The notes below the pieces were generated by a model. The model had not been told where the DNA came from. It made no database searches and saw nothing but the letters and a program-made list of their open reading frames with translations. Shown in pieces: positions 16,872 to 23,299 of a stretch of DNA of 64,000 bases (position 1 is the first letter of the stretch; each line of letters starts with the position of its first letter). A program made the position numbers and the translations under genes. The stretch lies in sequence record MN894885.1. The stretch is one strand, 5' to 3'. Source of the DNA: Escherichia phage Ec_Makalu_001.

Positions 16872-18923
16872 TTACATTTTAAATTTATCCGGCATAGCGT
16901 CTACAGACACAAGATCAGCGATAAGCTGACGTAGAGTTGCCTTATCTGCTTTCTTACGTTCGGTTTTAGCTTCGGTAATGAAGCTGGAGAAAGACAGGTC
17001 AGAAGCAGGTTTAACAACACCTTCACGGATGAATGCATCACCGTCCGCGATCATCTCACCAGATTCTTGTAATGCTGCCAGTTCATTTTTGTTCATAATA
17101 TGTGCCTCGATGTAATAAGTTTCTTGTGAATCCGTCGATGCCGTAGCACGAGTTACCGTATCAAAGGATAACACAACACCGCGAGGAAGTAAAATCTCGC
17201 ATTCTTTGTAAGCAAATGCTTTGTTACCTACTGGCAATACAGGGATGTTTTCCGCGCCAGCAATGGAGAAAGCAACATTAGCGCCACCTTCACCGCGAGA
17301 TCCAGCCATAGAATCAACACCAGCAACGGCACTAGCCACGTTTGCATTCCATCCACCAAAAATATTAGGTGCAAGGGAAGTGCTCACATAGTTTTTAAAG
17401 TAAAACGCTTTTTGCTTACGTGCAGTTTCCCACATTTGAGAACGGAAGTCCATACCACGATACAAGATAGTACCTGGATCAAGTTTAACACCATAGTTAG
17501 CAAATGCGTTATCCAGTGCATCACACATCTTGACCAATTCTTCTGGGTCTGCGATGCCTTCAAACTCTTCCAGCTTACGGTCGGTTAGGAAGTTGTTCAT
17601 ATTGATGTATGCTGCATCCGCATATTCGCTCAACACAAAACCTTCCGCGCCAGGCAGATCAAGATCAATATCTGCCATCATTTCACCCATGTTGCTAGCA
17701 ATTGCTTCAAACATACCGGAAGCAACATTACGCAGGGCATCGGTTTTAATCTGCGTGATGTGACTACGCAGCATTTCAGCTTTTACATCTGCTGGCATAG
17801 ACTGGTCGACGCGATCCATTGCTAGGGCGGTGATCTTGTTTTCAAACACTTCTTCATTCATGATTTCTTTTAAGCGTTTGATTGATGCTGCGATAACTTC
17901 CGCAGACAACGGATCATATTGATCCTGAACTTTTACCAGTTCGCTTACTGCGTATTTTGCATCGGCTTCGCTTTCAAAAATAGTACGCATGAAACCATAG
18001 CGAGTGATAATATCACTTGTCCAGTCATTCAGAGAACGGGCGGTTGAACGTTCTAAGGCTTGACGGTCAATCAGAGTATTAAACTGTTTCTTAGGTTCTG
18101 CTTCGGTGATATCTTCTTCCGGTTTAAGATTAATTTTTTCTGGATGATTCACATAGTCGCTGTTATAGGTCGCTTGAGTTTTCAGCATTTCTTCTTTAGT
18201 CAAACGAGATTTAGCCGCTACGCGTTGTTCTGCTTCCGCGTTTCGTTCTTCTTCTGACACAAGACTAGCCGCATACGCCTCATCTTTAGTCAGAGATTCA
18301 CCAGTAGCCTTAGATACCCAGCGATCACCTAAATCACTTTCTACTTTAGTGAACAGGGATTCATCGAGTTTAATCCCTTTAATCTTATCAATCGCCATCC
18401 CGCGACGTTTGACAACAACTAAAGCGATCTTTTTGCTGGTCATTACTTCCTGCTGGAATACTTCAAACTTCGGTGTACGACGCACCAAACGCTCTATAAC
18501 GCGCTTAACCAGTTCGGTCTTACCTTTCATGCGGGATACGTTAAAACGGAACATAACAGCGTCTAATTGCGCTTTACGGGCTGTTTCCATAACCACATCA
18601 AAAGCACTTGACATAACTGCAATTGGGTTATCTCCTAGACCATTTTTAAGCTGTACAATACGACCGCTTTTGTTCATTTCGCACAGTACAACATGTGCGG
18701 TCTTGTCACCCATACGAATGATTTTAGGTGTTTTGTTGGTGAAGTTACAAAGACGGACAATCACATCTTTATCGCGTGTCTGTACTGCAAAAAGCTGTTT
18801 AGGATTCTGCTTAGGCTTTAAGCACTGTACCGGAGCAATACTGCCAAAGTTTTCTTCCTCTTCCGTCAACAGCCATTTCTCGAAAGATTCAATCATTAGA
18901 TCGTCGATTTCTAAGTTAAACAT
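16872..18923 (-). CDS. alt: Alt ADP-ribosyltransferase (head-packaged)
   Basis: 683 aa (T4 Alt is 682 aa); C-terminal ART signature ILYRG, YVSTS, ECEILLPRG; synteny after gene 54. Confidence 0.75.
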   Translation of the reverse strand: MFNLEIDDLMIESFEKWLLTEEEENFGSIAPVQCLKPKQNPKQLFAVQTRDKDVIVRLCNFTNKTPKIIRMGDKTAHVVLCEMNKSGRIVQLKNGLGDNPIAVMSSAFDVVMETARKAQLDAVMFRFNVSRMKGKTELVKRVIERLVRRTPKFEVFQQEVMTSKKIALVVVKRRGMAIDKIKGIKLDESLFTKVESDLGDRWVSKATGESLTKDEAYAASLVSEEERNAEAEQRVAAKSRLTKEEMLKTQATYNSDYVNHPEKINLKPEEDITEAEPKKQFNTLIDRQALERSTARSLNDWTSDIITRYGFMRTIFESEADAKYAVSELVKVQDQYDPLSAEVIAASIKRLKEIMNEEVFENKITALAMDRVDQSMPADVKAEMLRSHITQIKTDALRNVASGMFEAIASNMGEMMADIDLDLPGAEGFVLSEYADAAYINMNNFLTDRKLEEFEGIADPEELVKMCDALDNAFANYGVKLDPGTILYRGMDFRSQMWETARKQKAFYFKNYVSTSLAPNIFGGWNANVASAVAGVDSMAGSRGEGGANVAFSIAGAENIPVLPVGNKAFAYKECEILLPRGVVLSFDTVTRATASTDSQETYYIEAHIMNKNELAALQESGEMIADGDAFIREGVVKPASDLSFSSFITEAKTERKKADKATLRQLIADLVSVDAMPDKFKM

Positions 18924-18964
18924 TTTATATCCTCTAGTTGATAACCTATAAACCTATATTTATG

Positions 18965-18985
18965 AAAAAGGGGCTTAACGCCCCC
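18965..18985 (-). terminator. Rho-independent terminator (minus strand); same hairpin recurs at 22987-23006
   Basis: Hairpin ggggc-gttaa-gcccc followed by U-run on minus strand. Confidence 0.5.
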
Positions 18986-18990
18986 ATTTA

Positions 18991-19203
18991 TTATAATGCA
19001 CCATCGAGCAATTGCTCTAAGGTGTATCCTGAATAGTCTTTTTCAATCAGGATATATTTTCCTACTCGTTTAATACAACCGCGCATTTCAACGTATTCTG
19101 CGTAGTTGATGGTGCGAGTTGTTCCATCTTCTAGTAAAGCAGTACCGATTTCGTTAATGCGGTCATAAGTTACGTCGGTAATGATGATTTCGATGTTAGC
19201 CAT
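18991..19203 (-). CDS. Hypothetical small protein (70 aa)
   Basis: ORF preceded by cassette promoter and GGAG RBS. Confidence 0.45.
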   Translation of the reverse strand: MANIEIIITDVTYDRINEIGTALLEDGTTRTINYAEYVEMRGCIKRVGKYILIEKDYSGYTLEQLLDGAL

Positions 19204-19239
19204 TTGATACTCCTTAGTAGTTCGTTTCGGTATGGGTGT

Positions 19240-19268
19240 ATTATGATATACACCCTCTGTTATGTCAA
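19240..19268 (-). promoter_or_regulatory. Sigma70-like early promoter (PeSL-type cassette)
   Basis: Minus strand: TTGACA, 17-bp spacer, CATAAT; conserved leader with GGAG RBS follows. Confidence 0.55.
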
Positions 19269-19274
19269 CAACTT

Positions 19275-19453
19275 TTAGAACATTTTTGAAATTAATTCTG
19301 CTTTGATTTCGCAGAGAACATCTAAAGATTTCTCGTCACCCGCTTTTGCTGCTTCTGCTTGCATTTTTGAAATGGCTTCAATGTCAGTGCAATTATAAGC
19401 CGCTTGAACTTTAGCGATTGCGATGATTGCCGATTCGATGGTTAAGTGTTTCA
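19275..19453 (-). CDS. Small protein (58 aa), not in supplied ORF track
   Basis: Own translation MKHLTIESAIIAIAKVQAAYNCTDIEA...; preceded by cassette promoter and GGAGAATCAAAC leader. Confidence 0.4.
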
Positions 19454-19486
19454 TGTTTGATTCTCCTTTCGTTTCGGTATGTGTGC

Positions 19487-19515
19487 AGTACAGGGGATCG
19501 CCGATCCCCTGTCAA
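19487..19515 (-). promoter_or_regulatory. Sigma70-like early promoter with palindromic GATC-containing spacer
   Basis: Minus strand: TTGACA, spacer GGGGATCGGCGATCCCC (17 bp, inverted repeat, two GATC), -10-like hexamer. Confidence 0.5.
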
Positions 19516-19522
19516 CAACTTT

Positions 19523-20041
19523 TTAGTTATTTTTTAATTGCTCATCTTGCAATAGGGCAATCACATGCTGGCGATGTTCTTCCGATTGAGGAACACCGAA
19601 AAAGTTTGTTTTGTAGAAATACTCTAATCGGTCTTCTCGTGTGCTCTCTTCCATCATGATCGCGGGTAGTCCGAGATTTCGGAAACGTCGCTTTTCTGCT
19701 GGCGTAAAATCACTGTAATACAACATAGAATCATCATTACCAGCAATGCTAAACTCATCCTTCATAAAGGAGAATATTGCGTTTAAACGCTGTTTACCGT
19801 CCACGATTTCGATCTCATAGCGAGAGCCATCATCAATCTTAGCCATTGCGATAGCACCAACCGGAAAATCATTAATCAGGTTTTCGATAAACATACGTTT
19901 GTTTTCGGTGTCCCATACCAAAGGACGCTGATAATCTGGGTTCATGTTGATATAGCCATCTTCTAACCACGCCTCATAAACAGAGATGACAAAGTTTTTA
20001 GTATTGGTATAGTAACGGCGTTTAGGCGTTAAACGGTTCAT
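19523..20041 (-). CDS. DUF262 / ParB-like nuclease-domain protein
   Basis: About 172 aa from the internal ATG at 20041 (GGAG RBS; the longer track ORF to 20077 would overlap the upstream gene); motifs DYQRPLVWD and VDGKQRL match the DGQQR signature of the DUF262 ParB/Srx-fold domain; last gene of a coupled 5-gene operon. Confidence 0.5.
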   Translation of the reverse strand: MNRLTPKRRYYTNTKNFVISVYEAWLEDGYINMNPDYQRPLVWDTENKRMFIENLINDFPVGAIAMAKIDDGSRYEIEIVDGKQRLNAIFSFMKDEFSIAGNDDSMLYYSDFTPAEKRRFRNLGLPAIMMEESTREDRLEYFYKTNFFGVPQSEEHRQHVIALLQDEQLKNN

Positions 20042-20042
20042 G

Positions 20043-20375
20043 TTATAGTCTCCTGAATGGATCATCACGTAAATCAATATCTTTTAAGAACTCATCCCAT
20101 GAATGGCGGATATTGTTCTTAATTCTCCAGATAAGCGCAGGGATTGAACGCTCTCCCATCTGGAAGTAAGGATCATATGATCCATATGCCCAATATGCTA
20201 CTACAATTCCACAATCGGCGCAATAATATTCTATTTCACTTGCTGGCGACCAAAGTCCATCAATATGATCACGGATCTTGCTTTCGATGTTATGGCTATG
20301 GCAATCAGGGCAACGGATGCAATGACCTTGTTTATCGTAATTTGACGTTAGCGAATACTTAAACAATCTCATCAT
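20043..20375 (-). CDS. Zinc-ribbon protein
   Basis: 110 aa; CIRCPDCHSH and YYCADCG Cys clusters; ATGA overlap with upstream gene. Confidence 0.45.
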   Translation of the reverse strand: MMRLFKYSLTSNYDKQGHCIRCPDCHSHNIESKIRDHIDGLWSPASEIEYYCADCGIVVAYWAYGSYDPYFQMGERSIPALIWRIKNNIRHSWDEFLKDIDLRDDPFRRL

Positions 20376-21088
20376 AGATCCTTATTGGCTTCAAATACTG
20401 CCTTTGCGAATCCTCGCGGGGTAAGTGACCTGATAGTCTTTGTTCTGGTTCCTTTCCCGCCTAGCTTAGAATGCTGTTTACTGTACCCTTTATTAATCTG
20501 CAACGGTTTCTTTTCTGGCATTATAAAGCCTTGTCCGGTCCATAAGCAAGTCTTTTTCGGGTACATATCACGGGCGGCAATATACTCAGGAAACGTAGGA
20601 TGCTTATCATCTTCCGGCAAATAACCGCCATATTCCCACGGATGGAACATGTAATCAGGCTTACGCCACATGCTAGAGATAACGCTTACAGGATTCTCTA
20701 TCATGTAGGGAACTCCTAGCCATTCACCCAAATAAGCGGTTATTTTAGCTGCCCTTACATCATGAACTTGAATTAATGGTCCTTGTTCTCGTTTCTTTCG
20801 TTCAAAGTGCGCAGCGCCACTAACAGCTAAATTGGTGCATGGTGGGAATGCAAAGATAATATCCGGTTTCCCCCATTCAAGGTCCATTGCTCTTTCCAGC
20901 CAATTTAAATCAATCCATGTGTTTACATATGTAATGTTTGGATGTTCAAATCGGGTATTATATTTTTTGTATGTACCGTGGTCGCCATCGTCAGCATTAA
21001 AGCAGATCACCTTATGACCTGCTTTAGCCCATTCTAACCCCATTATCCCCGATCCGTCAAAGTTGCAGAATATTAATTTTTGTTTCAT
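20372..21088 (-). CDS. C5-cytosine methyltransferase-like protein (compact; PPC catalytic motif)
   Basis: 238 aa; motif I-like FCNFDGSGIMG (FxGxG), motif IV-like FAFPPCT (PC catalytic Cys), motif VI-like IENPV (ENV); no obvious target-recognition domain. Confidence 0.4.
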   Translation of the reverse strand: MKQKLIFCNFDGSGIMGLEWAKAGHKVICFNADDGDHGTYKKYNTRFEHPNITYVNTWIDLNWLERAMDLEWGKPDIIFAFPPCTNLAVSGAAHFERKKREQGPLIQVHDVRAAKITAYLGEWLGVPYMIENPVSVISSMWRKPDYMFHPWEYGGYLPEDDKHPTFPEYIAARDMYPKKTCLWTGQGFIMPEKKPLQINKGYSKQHSKLGGKGTRTKTIRSLTPRGFAKAVFEANKDL

Positions 21089-21330
21089 ATACGCCCCTTT
21101 AACCCAACACAGATTTTAGAAGGTTCTTTGCCGTGCCACATTAAGTAAATTCCGTTAATGCGTCCTTGTTTTGTATATGATTCTTTTCTGATCTTCTTAT
21201 AGTGTCGTGCTTCCTCAGCCGATTGTTTAGAATGTCGATCATAAAGGAAGAGGAACAAAGGCCAACCATTAGCGGCCTTAATGCAGTTATTCAAAAATTC
21301 CTTATTTCGTTTAATTAATTTTCTTTTCAC
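21085..21330 (-). CDS. Hypothetical protein (81 aa)
   Basis: ORF translationally coupled on both sides (ATGA overlaps). Confidence 0.4.
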   Translation of the reverse strand: MKRKLIKRNKEFLNNCIKAANGWPLFLFLYDRHSKQSAEEARHYKKIRKESYTKQGRINGIYLMWHGKEPSKICVGLKGRI

Positions 21331-21578
21331 GCTGCCCCCATTGGTTTGATAGTAACAGAATCTAAAAGACCTTTGTTAGCCAGTTCGCGGCAAGTTTTCA
21401 GATCCGCAACTTCCCAGCCAGCCGCAATAAGGTTATCAATGAGGCTGTTAGCAACTTCTTCGCTCATGAAAGAGCACTGTTTGCCGATGGTGTAGCGTAC
21501 ACGCTGTAATTTCAGTTTACGGAAGCCTTTAACGTTCAGGTCTTTAGCGATTTTCTTTGCGGTTTCGATGTTAGCCAT
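21327..21578 (-). CDS. Hypothetical protein (83 aa), first gene of the operon
   Basis: ORF with GGAGAATCAAAC leader and cassette promoter upstream. Confidence 0.45.
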   Translation of the reverse strand: MANIETAKKIAKDLNVKGFRKLKLQRVRYTIGKQCSFMSEEVANSLIDNLIAAGWEVADLKTCRELANKGLLDSVTIKPMGAA

Positions 21579-21618
21579 TGTTTGATTCTCCTAAGTGGTA
21601 TCTCGTCTTGATGGTTGT

Positions 21619-21647
21619 ATTGTAGGGGAGTTATCCTCCCCTGTCAA
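21619..21647 (-). promoter_or_regulatory. Sigma70-like early promoter with palindromic spacer (operon 21578->19523)
   Basis: Minus strand: TTGACA, spacer GGGGAGGATAACTCCCC (17 bp), TACAAT. Confidence 0.5.
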
Positions 21648-21661
21648 CACTTTTTATAAAA

Positions 21662-21829
21662 TTATTTGTTAATTTCTGGTGCGTTGCTAGGATAGTAACC
21701 TTCTTTAACTCCGAGGTATTTCGCAACCATCCCTACAATCTTCTGTGCTACTACAATGTCAAATTTCAGATAATCTTCGCCGTGGGTTTCAATGATATAT
21801 GCTTCACATGCTGCTTTAGTCTCGAACAT
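21662..21829 (-). CDS. Small protein (55 aa), paralogue of 24945..25112; not in supplied ORF track
   Basis: Own translation MFETKAACEAYIIETHGEDYLKFDIVVAQK...; nucleotide sequence ~85% identical to the 24945-25112 copy; cassette promoter upstream. Confidence 0.5.
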   Translation of the reverse strand: MFETKAACEAYIIETHGEDYLKFDIVVAQKIVGMVAKYLGVKEGYYPSNAPEINK

Positions 21830-21862
21830 TTTGATTCTCCTATTTCGTTTCGGTATGTGTGT

Positions 21863-21891
21863 ATTATAGGGGATCTCCCGATCCCCGTCAA
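21863..21891 (-). promoter_or_regulatory. Sigma70-like early promoter with palindromic GATC-containing spacer
   Basis: Minus strand: TTGACG, spacer GGGATCGGGAGATCCCC, TATAAT. Confidence 0.55.
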
Positions 21892-21905
21892 CAACTTTTT
21901 TAAAA

Positions 21906-22187
21906 TTATTCGTGATTAGTTTCGATATTGTGCATTTTGCACCAGTTCAGCCAATCGCCAAGATCTTGATAGTTGATGCTTTTATCTGCTGCCATCGTTT
22001 TTGTCTTGATACCCATATGTGCGTTATGAGTAAGCATTTTTACAGTGAACTCAATTTTATCGCCTTTAGCTTTAACATCAACCAGTTTGGTCCACTGGCT
22101 ACCAGCACCGCGAATGTTCATACCAACGATGTTTCCGATGTATGCTTCTTTGTTGTTCAGGATTTCGGTTGCTTTGATGAATTTCAT
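21906..22187 (-). CDS. Hypothetical protein (93 aa)
   Basis: ORF with cassette promoter and leader. Confidence 0.45.
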   Translation of the reverse strand: MKFIKATEILNNKEAYIGNIVGMNIRGAGSQWTKLVDVKAKGDKIEFTVKMLTHNAHMGIKTKTMAADKSINYQDLGDWLNWCKMHNIETNHE

Positions 22188-22220
22188 TTTTGATTCTCCA
22201 GTTCGTTTCGGTATGGGTGT

Positions 22221-22249
22221 ATTATGCTATGTTCTTACTTTGGTGTCAA
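22221..22249 (-). promoter_or_regulatory. Sigma70-like early promoter (cassette)
   Basis: Minus strand: TTGACA, 17 bp, CATAAT. Confidence 0.5.
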
Positions 22250-22257
22250 CAACTTTT

Positions 22258-22527
22258 TTAGATATTTTCAGAAATAAATTTTAAAACTTGACGTAAATGT
22301 TTCTCATCTTTGATAGTCGCCGGAAGTTCTTCTTTTACTTCCTGTGCAAGATAGATATTTCCGTTCCAAGTGAAAGACCCGTCTTCGTTTACGCGATAGC
22401 TGAACATCCATTCGCAATCATTTTCGATTTCATATACACACAGAAGGGTGTAATCTTCAAAGCTATTGATTTCAAGGTCGAAGCCGTGGCGTTTTGCAAA
22501 GTTGGTAGTGGTTTTAGTCAGTGCCAT
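22258..22527 (-). CDS. Hypothetical protein (89 aa)
   Basis: ORF with cassette promoter and leader. Confidence 0.45.
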   Translation of the reverse strand: MALTKTTTNFAKRHGFDLEINSFEDYTLLCVYEIENDCEWMFSYRVNEDGSFTWNGNIYLAQEVKEELPATIKDEKHLRQVLKFISENI

Positions 22528-22567
22528 TGTTTGATTCTCCTAAGTGGTATCTCGTTTCGATGGGTGT

Positions 22568-22596
22568 ATTATGCTATAGGCGTGATCAGGTGTCAA
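22568..22596 (-). promoter_or_regulatory. Sigma70-like early promoter (cassette)
   Basis: Minus strand: TTGACA, 17 bp, CATAAT. Confidence 0.5.
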
Positions 22597-22621
22597 TGCC
22601 TTTTTTAAAATTTTATGCAAT

Positions 22622-22645
22622 AAAAAAGCCGACACTAAGGTCGGC
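22622..22645 (-). terminator. Rho-independent terminator (minus strand)
   Basis: Hairpin gccgacc-ttagt-gtcggc followed by UUUUUU on the minus strand. Confidence 0.55.
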
Positions 22646-22653
22646 TAATAAAA

Positions 22654-22962
22654 TCATTTAGGCAAATAATCATTCAGTGCAATCCGGTCGGCATGTTCCG
22701 GCGTTACATCAATCGCAATCACTTTAACGCGTGCTTTCTTGCGACCTGGGTTTTCTCGTAACCAGTGCTCATGACCGTGAACATTTTTATACTGCGATGC
22801 TTCTTCGAAGGTACGGATCGGACCAGGGTAATCAGCGTAAAGGATCTCTAGGTCATCGGTGATGTAAAAATATACGTTGTAATTACTGTTCTCTAGCTTA
22901 AGCAGAGACTTTCGGAACATTGGGAGATTTTCGCGGGTAAATTCAAAAGTAATATCTTTCAT
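22654..22962 (-). CDS. Paralogue family A member 1 (HxHW...AIDV motif protein)
   Basis: About 102 aa from the internal ATG at 22962 (GAGGA RBS); motifs YFYITDDLEILYADY, HGHEHW, KVIAIDV shared with five neighbouring ORFs. Confidence 0.5.
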   Translation of the reverse strand: MKDITFEFTRENLPMFRKSLLKLENSNYNVYFYITDDLEILYADYPGPIRTFEEASQYKNVHGHEHWLRENPGRKKARVKVIAIDVTPEHADRIALNDYLPK

Positions 22963-22986
22963 AGTATTATCCTCAATAGTTGGATG

Positions 22987-23006
22987 AAAAGGGGGCTTAA
23001 CGCCCC
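22987..23006 (-). terminator. Rho-independent terminator (minus strand), duplicate of the 18965-18985 hairpin
   Basis: Same ggggcgttaagcccc hairpin plus U-run. Confidence 0.45.
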
Positions 23007-23011
23007 ATATA

Positions 23012-23299
23012 TTAAAACAGTCCTTCCTGTACACCGTAGTAGAGTTCGTCGCTGATAATTTCATTAATGCGACGGTGTGCATATTCCTGATTTGCGAAGT
23101 TGTCAGCAAGTTCTACTTTAGTTTCACCGTCATGAGTCCATTTAGTGATAACTTTACCATCTGCAAATTTGAAGTTGAACTCTTTAGCTACTGCATCGCG
23201 TACCAGACGTGCGAACTTGTTGTTACGGATTGCATTATCGGTTTCGTGTGCAGCGTGAGCAAATTTGTTAACTTTCAGAGTGATAGTGATGTATGCCAT
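23012..23299 (-). CDS. Paralogue family B member 1
   Basis: 95 aa; region NAIRNNKFARLVRDAVAKEF shared with 26330..26641 (NAILIREVRKALAKEF). Confidence 0.45.
   Translation of the reverse strand: MAYITITLKVNKFAHAAHETDNAIRNNKFARLVRDAVAKEFNFKFADGKVITKWTHDGETKVELADNFANQEYAHRRINEIISDELYYGVQEGLF

Follow-up and report, generated by a model that had tools for sequence, protein, structure and literature searches.

We propose that a five-gene block of Escherichia phage Ec_Makalu_001 (MN894885.1) is probably a single early transcription unit in a Krischvirus hyperplastic region, bounded by two promoter-early stem-loop (PeSL) cassettes and made up of five accessory genes, here called A to E, that are independently distributed among phages. 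In this interpretation gene C encodes a phage 'Dcm' methylase and gene E a bare ParB/DUF262 domain. The genes stand side by side in Krischvirus only and are not a conserved machine, and the finding is largely ordinary. All coordinates refer to the window, the 64,000-nucleotide stretch of DNA that was analysed.

The window belongs to an RB49-like Krischvirus and shares 99.8% identity with Ec_Makalu_002. Its block consists of five minus-strand ORFs running from 21578 to 19523 between the two cassettes: gene A (21327..21578, 83 aa), gene B (21085..21330, 81 aa, its GTG start overlapping the stop codon of A), gene C (20372..21088, 238 aa, a minimal C5-cytosine DNA methyltransferase of the phage 'Dcm' type), gene D (20043..20375, 110 aa, a putative four-cysteine zinc-ribbon protein) and gene E (19523..20041, 172 aa counted from the ATG, a single-domain ParB/DUF262 protein). 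Inspection of the sequence revealed 4-nt GTGA/ATGA stop/start overlaps at the A/B, B/C and C/D junctions, a 1-nt spacer at D/E and a Shine-Dalgarno-like purine run before every start, so that the five ORFs and the coupled starts and stops described in the first-pass annotation are all present. The block occurs in 55 Krischvirus records at 97-99.8% nucleotide identity, and phage GEC-3S carries the same annotation of it, promoters included. Relative to GEC-3S, pN/pS ranges from 0.04 to 0.28 across the five genes, although the underlying counts are small. Structured RNAs matching Rfam were absent from positions 18500-23200.

The upstream cassette (21599..21656, minus strand) combines an early sigma-70 promoter with a hairpin in the promoter spacer. 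The promoter (21647..21619) comprises TTGACA at 21647-21642, a 17-nt spacer and TACAAT at 21624-21619, and a promoter scan matched 11 of 12 consensus positions, in agreement with the strong promoter noted earlier at 21619-21647; GEC-3S carries an annotation for this promoter too. Its spacer forms the G/C hairpin GGGGAGGATAACTCCCC (-19.4 kcal/mol, z -5.5). The downstream cassette (19467..19524, minus strand), the reference copy of repeat family D1, likewise has a hairpin in its promoter spacer (GGGGATCGGCGATCCCC, at about 19490-19508, -19.7 kcal/mol, z -4.0), which is likely to attenuate or terminate transcription of the five-gene unit, together with a weaker promoter (TTGACA-17-TGTACT) serving the next gene (59 aa). 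A promoter is annotated at this place in GEC-3S as well. Both cassettes belong to a direct-repeat family of five copies, of which those at 19467-19524 and 21599-21656 flank the block. Repeated sigma-70 consensus promoters with an adjacent or embedded stem-loop beside accessory ORFs are what defines the PeSL elements of the hyperplastic regions of RB49 and phi1 (PMC2839356), and both cassettes show this arrangement. Unlike most PeSL units of the window, which hold one small ORF each, the present unit holds five coupled genes, and the spacing across it (2132 nt) is the largest in the local PeSL array.

Homologues of A, B, C, D and E were detected in 56, 172, 1524, 338 and 305 phage records, respectively, and in differing phage groups. 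These separate distributions point to independent acquisition of the genes and not to a co-evolved system. All 56 records of A (phrog_14908), obtained by tblastn, are from Krischvirus, to which this ORFan is restricted; its pN/pS of 0.15 derives from 3 differences only, and its product weakly matches the C-terminal part of the DRT protein RT_UG35 in PADLOC (E 2.6e-5). Gene B (phrog_7065), likewise classed as a small ORFan, encodes a small basic protein also present in Dhakavirus and Seunavirus. It evolves fastest of the five genes (89-93% amino acid identity, pN/pS 0.28) and is dispensable; the Krischvirus-like contig L094 is without it. Gene D (phrog_2993, pN/pS 0.19) has the cysteines C19xxC22xxC25 and C52xxC55, in line with the zinc ribbon noted earlier between C and E; its zinc-ribbon Pfam matches are all sub-threshold (best, Zn_Ribbon_TF, 20.3 bits; cut-off 29). 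A word-indexed homologue search returned D's own cluster only. The records of D include Nonagvirus 9g/JenP2, BRET, Felixounavirus and GAP227-like phages, in none of which it adjoins a methylase. Two candidate gene pairs were considered and rejected. The ORF of about 108 aa that overlaps and precedes the E homologue in Slopekvirus and Karamvirus-type phages has neither similarity to D nor cysteine knuckles, and the extra 59-aa ORF following D in Krischvirus kaaroe bears no similarity to the 59-aa ORF following the D homologue of 9g.

C, D and E had been suggested to form a DNA-modification or inter-phage-competition module; in such a module a zinc-ribbon-guided methyltransferase would act together with a DUF262 sensor. 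We regard this as improbable. It would account for the stop/start overlaps, the single promoter and the retention of the block in 55 Krischvirus genomes; C is almost devoid of a target-recognition domain and could in principle require a partner, and fusions of ParB-fold domains to DNA methyltransferases are frequent in phages (PMC12704722). That C, D and E are so tightly coupled in translation would also fit some functional link within Krischvirus that is invisible to comparative data. However, 97-99% identity within one genus says little about function, and outside this genus the association disappears: A, B, D and E are all missing within 6 kb of the C homologue at each of 79 loci, and A, B, C and D are missing from every one of the 78 loci that encode an E homologue. 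The operon is thus conserved in related phages only as far as Krischvirus extends. The same counts leave the methyltransferase without a conserved cognate partner outside Krischvirus, contrary to a restriction-modification or defence operon. Elsewhere, homologues of D and E sit among unrelated small early genes; within the genus, an additional ORF separates D from E in kaaroe, and B has been lost from L094. Furthermore, the Dcm of phage K42, a relative of C, is reported in a preprint to be active on its own in E. coli. Judged by where their homologues occur, C and E need none of A, B or D in other phages, and we continue with the reading of independent accessory genes in a common early unit.

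The product of gene C carries the hallmarks of a C5-cytosine methyltransferase in the expected order, as the first-pass annotation had described. The SAM-binding FxGxG of motif I (F10-D-G12-S13-G14), the P82-P83-C84-T85 of motif IV, in which Thr replaces the Gln of PCQ, and the E131-N132-P133 of motif VI are each invariant in 50 family members. The QxRxR of motif VIII is absent, and K178-K179-T180 lies on the corresponding strand instead. Motifs VIII and IX also enclose no target-recognition domain of appreciable size; only about 28 residues (about 186-213) separate the strand at 180-185 from the motif IX/X helices, whereas a conserved insert of roughly 47 residues lies between motifs VI and VIII. 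The protein is about 90 residues shorter than M.HhaI, and its PPCT, ENP and KKT distinguish it from canonical enzymes such as M.HhaI, M.HaeIII, E. coli Dcm and DNMT3A/B, which have PCQ, ENV and QxRxR. Profile searches upheld the earlier assignment in part: C scores below the gathering cut-off of the Pfam family DNA_methylase (PF00145; 13.9 bits against 22, residues 10-100 only), for which a few members of its family carry a precomputed hit, and matches phrog_757 over its full length (residues 1-237, E 2e-90). Searching the PDB with the single sequence and with a profile of 50 family sequences gave zero matches. Because the PF00145 cut-off is missed and the PDB offers no match, membership of C rests on its motifs, on its fold, which is that of the catalytic domain of C5-cytosine DNA methyltransferases, and on an experimentally studied relative.

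That relative places C in a known family. C is 56% identical over 235 aa to bas06_0055 of phage KarlJaspers (Bas06), and shares with the Dcm proteins of KarlJaspers and K42, both Drexlerviridae, the family phrog_757 and the length class (236 aa in the relative, 238 aa in C). Based on these similarities, C appears to be a new member of the already studied phage 'Dcm' methylase family, which has more than 7000 clusters, occurs in about 1500 sequenced phages of many unrelated families and is found mainly in phages of Escherichia, Klebsiella, Salmonella and Shigella. The K42 dcm gene (711 bp) is reported to trigger retron Ec86 and to raise 5mC in msDNA as measured by LC-MS (preprint). Four mutations of PPC, ENP and KK residues are reported to inactivate the K42 enzyme (preprint), and C shares all of these residues: C84 corresponds in the alignment to KarlJaspers C82, where K42 Dcm was mutated, E131 aligns with E128 of K42 Dcm, and K178/K179 are equivalent to K175/K176, treated in the preprint as substrate-binding residues. 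Unlike its Drexlerviridae relatives, C is encoded by a T4-type myovirus, inside a PeSL-bounded five-gene unit.

We infer that C would be transcribed early in infection from the host sigma-70 promoter and would use SAM and Cys84/Glu131 chemistry to produce 5-methylcytosine at short DNA sites. These sites probably resemble CCWGG, the specificity assumed for the Drexlerviridae relative from its name and from msDNA mutants (preprint). The most likely benefit would lie in shielding the phage's DNA against restriction of the EcoRII type in enterobacterial hosts, and a known cost is that the family can trigger retron Ec86. This retron is native to E. coli B (preprint), on which Krischviruses are routinely grown (PMC2839356), so that either the retron is not triggered by the Krischvirus Dcm or these phages evade it. 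In the window CCWGG shows a depletion of about 2- to 3-fold, which would not be expected if self-methylation protected completely, and which is ambiguous. Methylation-driven decay of CCWGG was considered and rejected as its source; CTWGG/CCWAG is not enriched (ratio 0.55), and there is thus no deamination signature. Krischvirus TB34, which has an intact gene C, is reported to have no detectable modified nucleosides (PMC13390438). This is weak evidence against activity of C, since full CCWGG methylation would touch only about 0.19% of cytosines.

A different role had been raised for the methylase, namely that it guards the phage's own cytosine DNA against endonuclease II (denA) and replaces the hydroxymethylcytosine protection of T4. 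Its sole basis in the window is the first-pass remark on the presence of denA and the absence of alc; in addition, RB49-type phages are described as having no hmC pathway (PMC13390438). We consider this role highly improbable. Members of the methylase family occur in more than 1500 phages from unrelated families, an enzyme confined to specific sites has no means of covering every cytosine (about 0.2% would be marked if the site is CCWGG), and the DNA of TB34 is reported to be unmodified.

Phages are known to have pathways in which a methyltransferase, a TET enzyme and a glycosyltransferase act in succession. C could by analogy catalyse the entry step of the 5hmdC/glucosyl-5hmdC hypermodification of Krischvirus SAP, its 5mC then being oxidised and glycosylated, and SAP is reported to contain modified cytosines without known pathway genes (PMC13390438). 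However, genes A to E are identical in SAP and in its unmodified twin TB34, which locally differ only by a PeSL duplication of 79 bp downstream of E. The surroundings of the block showed neither a TET enzyme nor a glycosyltransferase, and a site-specific enzyme would not account for the 'full complement' of modified cytosines that SAP is reported to have. We give this pathway hardly any credence.

Gene E was confirmed as a DUF262/ParB-like protein. It matches Pfam GmrSD_N/DUF262 (PF03235) with E 4e-20 (73.2 bits; cut-off 33.2), has the ParB/Srx fold and retains the three motifs defined for DUF262 (PMC12065111): QRxxxW in motif I (Q38R39PLVW43), DGxQR in motif II (D81G82K83Q84R85) and FxxxN in motif III (F142YKTN146), whose residues vary little or not at all across 52 standalone relatives. 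A word-indexed search gave only 7 relatives of E, and an exhaustive search of representatives was used instead; standalone relatives are common in phages and in prophage accessory regions. In fold and motifs E resembles GmrSD, BrxU and SspE, the last two being among its best structural and profile matches. However, E (172 aa) consists of DUF262 alone, with neither the middle DNA-binding domain nor the DUF1524/HNH nuclease of these proteins and no ParBDB domain, and its neighbouring genes encode no nuclease domain. Since E lacks nuclease and DNA-binding domains, it cannot alone be a GmrSD-type restriction enzyme. The best PADLOC profiles, NsnA (E 1e-20) and PD-T4-2_A (E 5e-12), both match over the DUF262 part, and for NsnA the matched profile positions (47-188 of 385) are confined to it. 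NsnA of the Menshen system carries a ParBDB domain at its C-terminus and acts together with NsnB and NsnC (PMC12065111), whereas E has no such domain and no gene for an NsnB-type ATPase or NsnC-type effector nearby. E also resembles in form the single-domain ParB-CTPase-fold proteins of phages, Osa and sulfiredoxin, being short, almost solely ParB/Srx fold and encoded on a mobile element. Single-domain ParB-fold proteins are a recognised phage class in a 2025 survey, although that survey was built on PF02195 and not on DUF262 (PMC12704722); Osa and DndB are named as examples of NTPases with the ParB/Srx fold (PMC12065111). As a bare NTP-binding domain with no effector, E may function as a lone NTP-dependent switch that binds DNA or protein.

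Alternatively, E, alone or with D, could be a counter-defence or inter-phage factor that titrates or poisons host DUF262 sensors (GmrSD/BrxU, SspE, Menshen NsnA, PD-T4-2) or binds the modified DNA of competing T-even phages. Such a factor would be in keeping with NsnA and PD-T4-2_A as the closest defence profiles, with BrxU and SspE as nearest in fold and profile, with the frequency of standalone relatives in phages and prophage accessory regions, with the position of E as an early gene in an accessory region and with the retention of all three NTP-site motifs. However, these intact catalytic-type motifs would suit an enzyme or a switch better than an inert decoy, neither an effector domain nor a conserved partner turned up, and a literature search yielded no experimental precedent. 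We consider a counter-defence role unlikely. Less likely again is its most developed form, in which E, possibly helped by D, would be a new phage factor derived from a defence-type sensor domain, serving as a decoy or poison subunit for GmrSD/BrxU, SspE, Menshen or PD-T4-2, or as an NTP-gated binder of modified DNA against co-infecting T-even phages, and co-expressed with a Dcm that changes the epigenetic marking of the DNA inside infected cells. We favour the lone switch for E.

For annotation, the block illustrates that operon structure in PeSL-rich hyperplastic regions does not equate to a functional module without evidence of co-occurrence. The importance of the methylase is modest: C belongs to a very large family whose proteins are unusually small for C5-methyltransferases and have no normal target-recognition domain. 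A T4-type phage with cytosine DNA and a Dcm is a convenient system for mapping the specificity of this family, as well as for studying tolerance of retron Ec86 in E. coli B. Uncharacterised single-domain ParB-fold proteins are numerous in phages; E is among them, and its activity would reveal the role of a lone defence sensor domain encoded by a virus.

The five minus-strand ORFs called in the first-pass annotation were confirmed at their coordinates by an ORF check of the window: gene A (21327..21578, 83 aa), gene B (21085..21330, 81 aa, GTG start), gene C (20372..21088, 238 aa, the methylase), gene D (20043..20375, 110 aa, the zinc-ribbon protein) and gene E (19523..20041, 172 aa counted from the ATG, the DUF262 protein). 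Their starts and stops are indeed coupled, by 4-nt overlaps of GTGA (A/B), ATGA (B/C) and ATGA (C/D) and a one-base D/E spacer, and sequence inspection identified a purine-rich ribosome-binding stretch ahead of every start. A promoter scan recovered the proposed cassette promoter at 21647..21619 (TTGACA-17-TACAAT), which matches 11/12 consensus positions, while scanning the block interior revealed no comparable promoter and no convincing terminator. The block is an early, sigma-70-driven unit. Relative to GEC-3S, pN/pS values are 0.15 (A), 0.28 (B), 0.04 (C), 0.19 (D) and 0.08 (E); they fit coding regions that evolve under purifying selection, although A and E differ at few sites only. Genes of the block are already publicly annotated as 'DNA methyltransferase', 'Dcm' and 'DUF262 domain protein'.

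The window derives from a Krischvirus, an RB49-like T4-type myovirus. Positions 19300-21800 are 99.8% identical to Ec_Makalu_002, and at least 80% of this stretch occurs in 55 phage records at 97-99.8% identity; the GEC-3S annotation contains the same five CDS and promoters, with an Alt ADP-ribosyltransferase gene ~600 nt downstream. The ORFs on either side of the block are small ORFans, none with a Pfam domain, and the block region has no Rfam family match. The block promoter belongs to a direct-repeat family (19220-19277, 19467-19524, 21599-21656, 21843-21900, 22201-22258), and in both block-flanking copies the 17-nt promoter spacer folds into a stable G/C hairpin, at -19.7 kcal/mol (z -4.0) in one copy and -19.4 kcal/mol (z -5.5) in the other. 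These elements are promoter-early stem-loop (PeSL) cassettes of the kind known since 2010 from RB49 and phi1, where they border non-essential ORFans of hyperplastic regions and bring about modular shuffling (PMC2839356). A further 79-nt repeat with 77% identity (21543-21621 and 22492-22570) takes in the 5'UTR, ribosome-binding site and opening ~12 codons of gene A, along with the corresponding segments of ORF 22258..22527; PeSL-associated homology therefore runs into coding starts.

Translational coupling of A-E shows co-expression, not co-function. For the earlier proposal that C, D and E form one functional DNA-modification or competition module, comparative data gave no support: not one of A, B, D and E was found within ±6 kb of the C homologue at any of 79 IMG/VR loci from outside Krischvirus, and at 78 non-Krischvirus loci with an E homologue, A, B and D were detected by tblastn in 0/78 and C by tblastn or family profile in 0/78. 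Together with variable content within Krischvirus, this indicates that the five genes are juxtaposed only in Krischvirus, as expected from PeSL-mediated shuffling. An apparent D-E pair in Slopekvirus/Karamvirus-type phages was rejected, the ~108-aa ORF overlapping the start of the E homologue being unrelated to D. In phage kaaroe (L087 1042-1221), D and E are separated by an additional 59-aa ORF, itself translationally coupled, which is unrelated to the 59-aa ORF following the D homologue in phage 9g. In a Krischvirus-like metagenomic contig from IMG/VR (L094 4727-5670), gene B is missing and A is chimeric, its N-terminal third being different. The start codon of C in this contig is a GTG that equals B's GTG in the window and overlaps the stop of A; the start regions of B and C resemble each other, and the variant has the look of an exact deletion between them.

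Gene C encodes a protein with a C5-methyltransferase fold and catalytic Cys/Glu. Pfam DNA_methylase gives a weak match confined to the N-terminal third, its 13.9 bits falling short of the cut-off of 22, and PHROG family 757 ('DNA methyltransferase') covers the whole protein (E 2e-90). At E ≤ 0.001 this very large family has 7317 clusters, and its members are of uniform length, the best 120 listed spanning 219-259 aa. It occurs in 1524 phage records, including Dhillonvirus, Drexlerviridae and Vequintavirinae, with hosts mostly Escherichia, Klebsiella, Salmonella and Shigella. An alignment of 50 members bore out the motif assignment: the invariant F10-x-G12-S13-G14, P82-P83-C84-T85, E131-N132-P133, K178/T180/W183 and T216-K217-x-I219-R220-S221-L222-x-x-R225-G226 match motifs I, IV and VI, the position of VIII, and IX/X, arranged in the canonical order. 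As suspected, the target-recognition domain is nearly absent, with ~28 residues (186-213) at its expected place. The AlphaFold model is confident (pLDDT 89.8), and Foldseek returned generic Rossmann matches only. Since neither the sequence nor the family profile matched any PDB sequence, C represents a divergent branch that can be recognised from its motifs and its fold.

Relatives of C have already been studied experimentally. One is the 'Dcm-like C5 cytosine methyltransferase' from a 711-bp gene of the BASEL phage KarlJaspers (Bas06), which is 56% identical to C over its full length, its C82, E128 and K175/K176 aligning with C84, E131 and K178/K179 of C. A preprint on phage K42, which shares 95.4% genome identity with Bas06, reports that mutants escaping retron Ec86 map to the 711-bp dcm, Dcm expression is toxic when Ec86 is present, 5mC in msDNA is raised by Dcm (LC-MS), a C82A/E128A/K175A/K176A mutant is inactive, and 34/35 Ec86-sensitive phages encode Dcm; the CCWGG specificity was assumed from the name and msDNA CCTGG mutants rather than mapped (10.1101/2023.08.16.553469). 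C is a further member of this family, which in the K42 setting acts without D or E. Ec86 is native to E. coli B (10.1101/2023.08.16.553469), on which Krischviruses are routinely propagated according to host records and literature. Krischviruses thus grow on an Ec86-bearing host, yet encode a Dcm of the family reported to trigger this retron, which suggests that their Dcm does not trigger Ec86 or that the phage escapes.

The assignment of E to DUF262 held (Pfam GmrSD_N, E 4e-20), with PADLOC matches of its DUF262 part to NsnA (1e-20) and PD-T4-2_A (5e-12). An exhaustive search recovered 6168 relatives, many of the closest being standalone proteins of 155-190 aa. Many other relatives, of ~260-290 aa (e.g. 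P0145, P0152, P0157, P0163), carry DUF262 in the C-terminal half, and their N-terminal ~120-140 aa have no Pfam match; this architecture appears to be uncharacterised. The three DUF262 motifs (PMC12065111) are conserved in 52 standalone relatives and in E (Q38R39xxxW43, D81G82K83Q84R85, F142xxxN146), which carries a complete DUF262 NTP-site. The structure model of E is very confident (pLDDT 95.3). Sequence matches of its family profile include BrxU (3.8e-9) and SspE; E lacks DUF1524/HNH and ParBDB DNA-binding domains, and its neighbours supply none. A 2025 survey recognised short single-domain ParB-fold phage proteins as a class of their own and suggested that this fold is able to function as an independent unit (PMC12704722). 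We hypothesise that E is an autonomous NTP-dependent switch or binder.

Gene D encodes cysteines in the pattern C19xxC22xxC25 ... C52xxC55, with sub-threshold Pfam zinc-ribbon matches only. Its relatives, in Nonagvirus 9g and JenP2 and in BRET (42-44% identity), with more remote ones in Felixounavirus and GAP227-like phages, sit among small early genes, not beside methylases. Gene A is confined to Krischvirus (56 records); residues 12-75 weakly match positions 722-785 of the 938-position PADLOC profile RT_UG35 (DRT, a defence reverse transcriptase; E 2.6e-5), which could reflect chance or a common small domain. Gene B is present in 172 records, Dhakavirus and Seunavirus among them, and is far more variable among Krischviruses than its neighbours (89-95% versus 97-100% amino acid identity), with the highest pN/pS of the block.

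Krischvirus SAP reportedly carries 5hmdC and glucosyl-5hmdC with no known pathway, whereas its twin TB34, with an intact gene C, was reported to show no detectable modified nucleosides by HPLC/MS (PMC13390438). The two genomes are 99.96% identical and their genes A-E identical. Within a 5.5-kb region they differ by four single-base indels outside A-E and by a 79-bp tandem PeSL duplication in SAP (L003 1707-1785, window ~19467-19545), just downstream of E and comprising the 3' end of E, promoter/hairpin and 5'UTR. Of the 112 bp by which the genomes differ in length, 79 are due to this duplication, which, we suspect, a SNP-oriented comparison could miss; it offers no obvious explanation for the difference in modification.

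CCWGG is depleted 2- to 3-fold in the window (1-64000; 24 sites versus 52 ± 6.7 in shuffles, Markov-model ratio 0.35); of 32 pentamer palindromes, it and CCSGG (0.31) and GGSCC (0.11) show the strongest depletion. Because CTWGG shows no excess in the window, this looks like restriction-site avoidance rather than decay by 5mC deamination, which is odd for a phage encoding a Dcm-type methylase. Complete CCWGG methylation would affect ~0.19% of cytosines (computed), and the TB34 measurement therefore does not settle the activity of C. The earlier idea that the methylase shields phage DNA from its own endonuclease II (denA) is unlikely, given that the C family spans unrelated phages, that its methylation would be sparse and limited to specific sites, and that DNA of TB34 was reported unmodified (PMC13390438). 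We propose that C methylates short, probably CCWGG-like sites in phage DNA during replication and possibly also in that of the host. The main benefit would be protection from EcoRII-type restriction, a role that is compatible with the tolerance of Dcm sites by E. coli McrBC and fits the strong bias of the family to phages of Escherichia, Klebsiella, Salmonella and Shigella.
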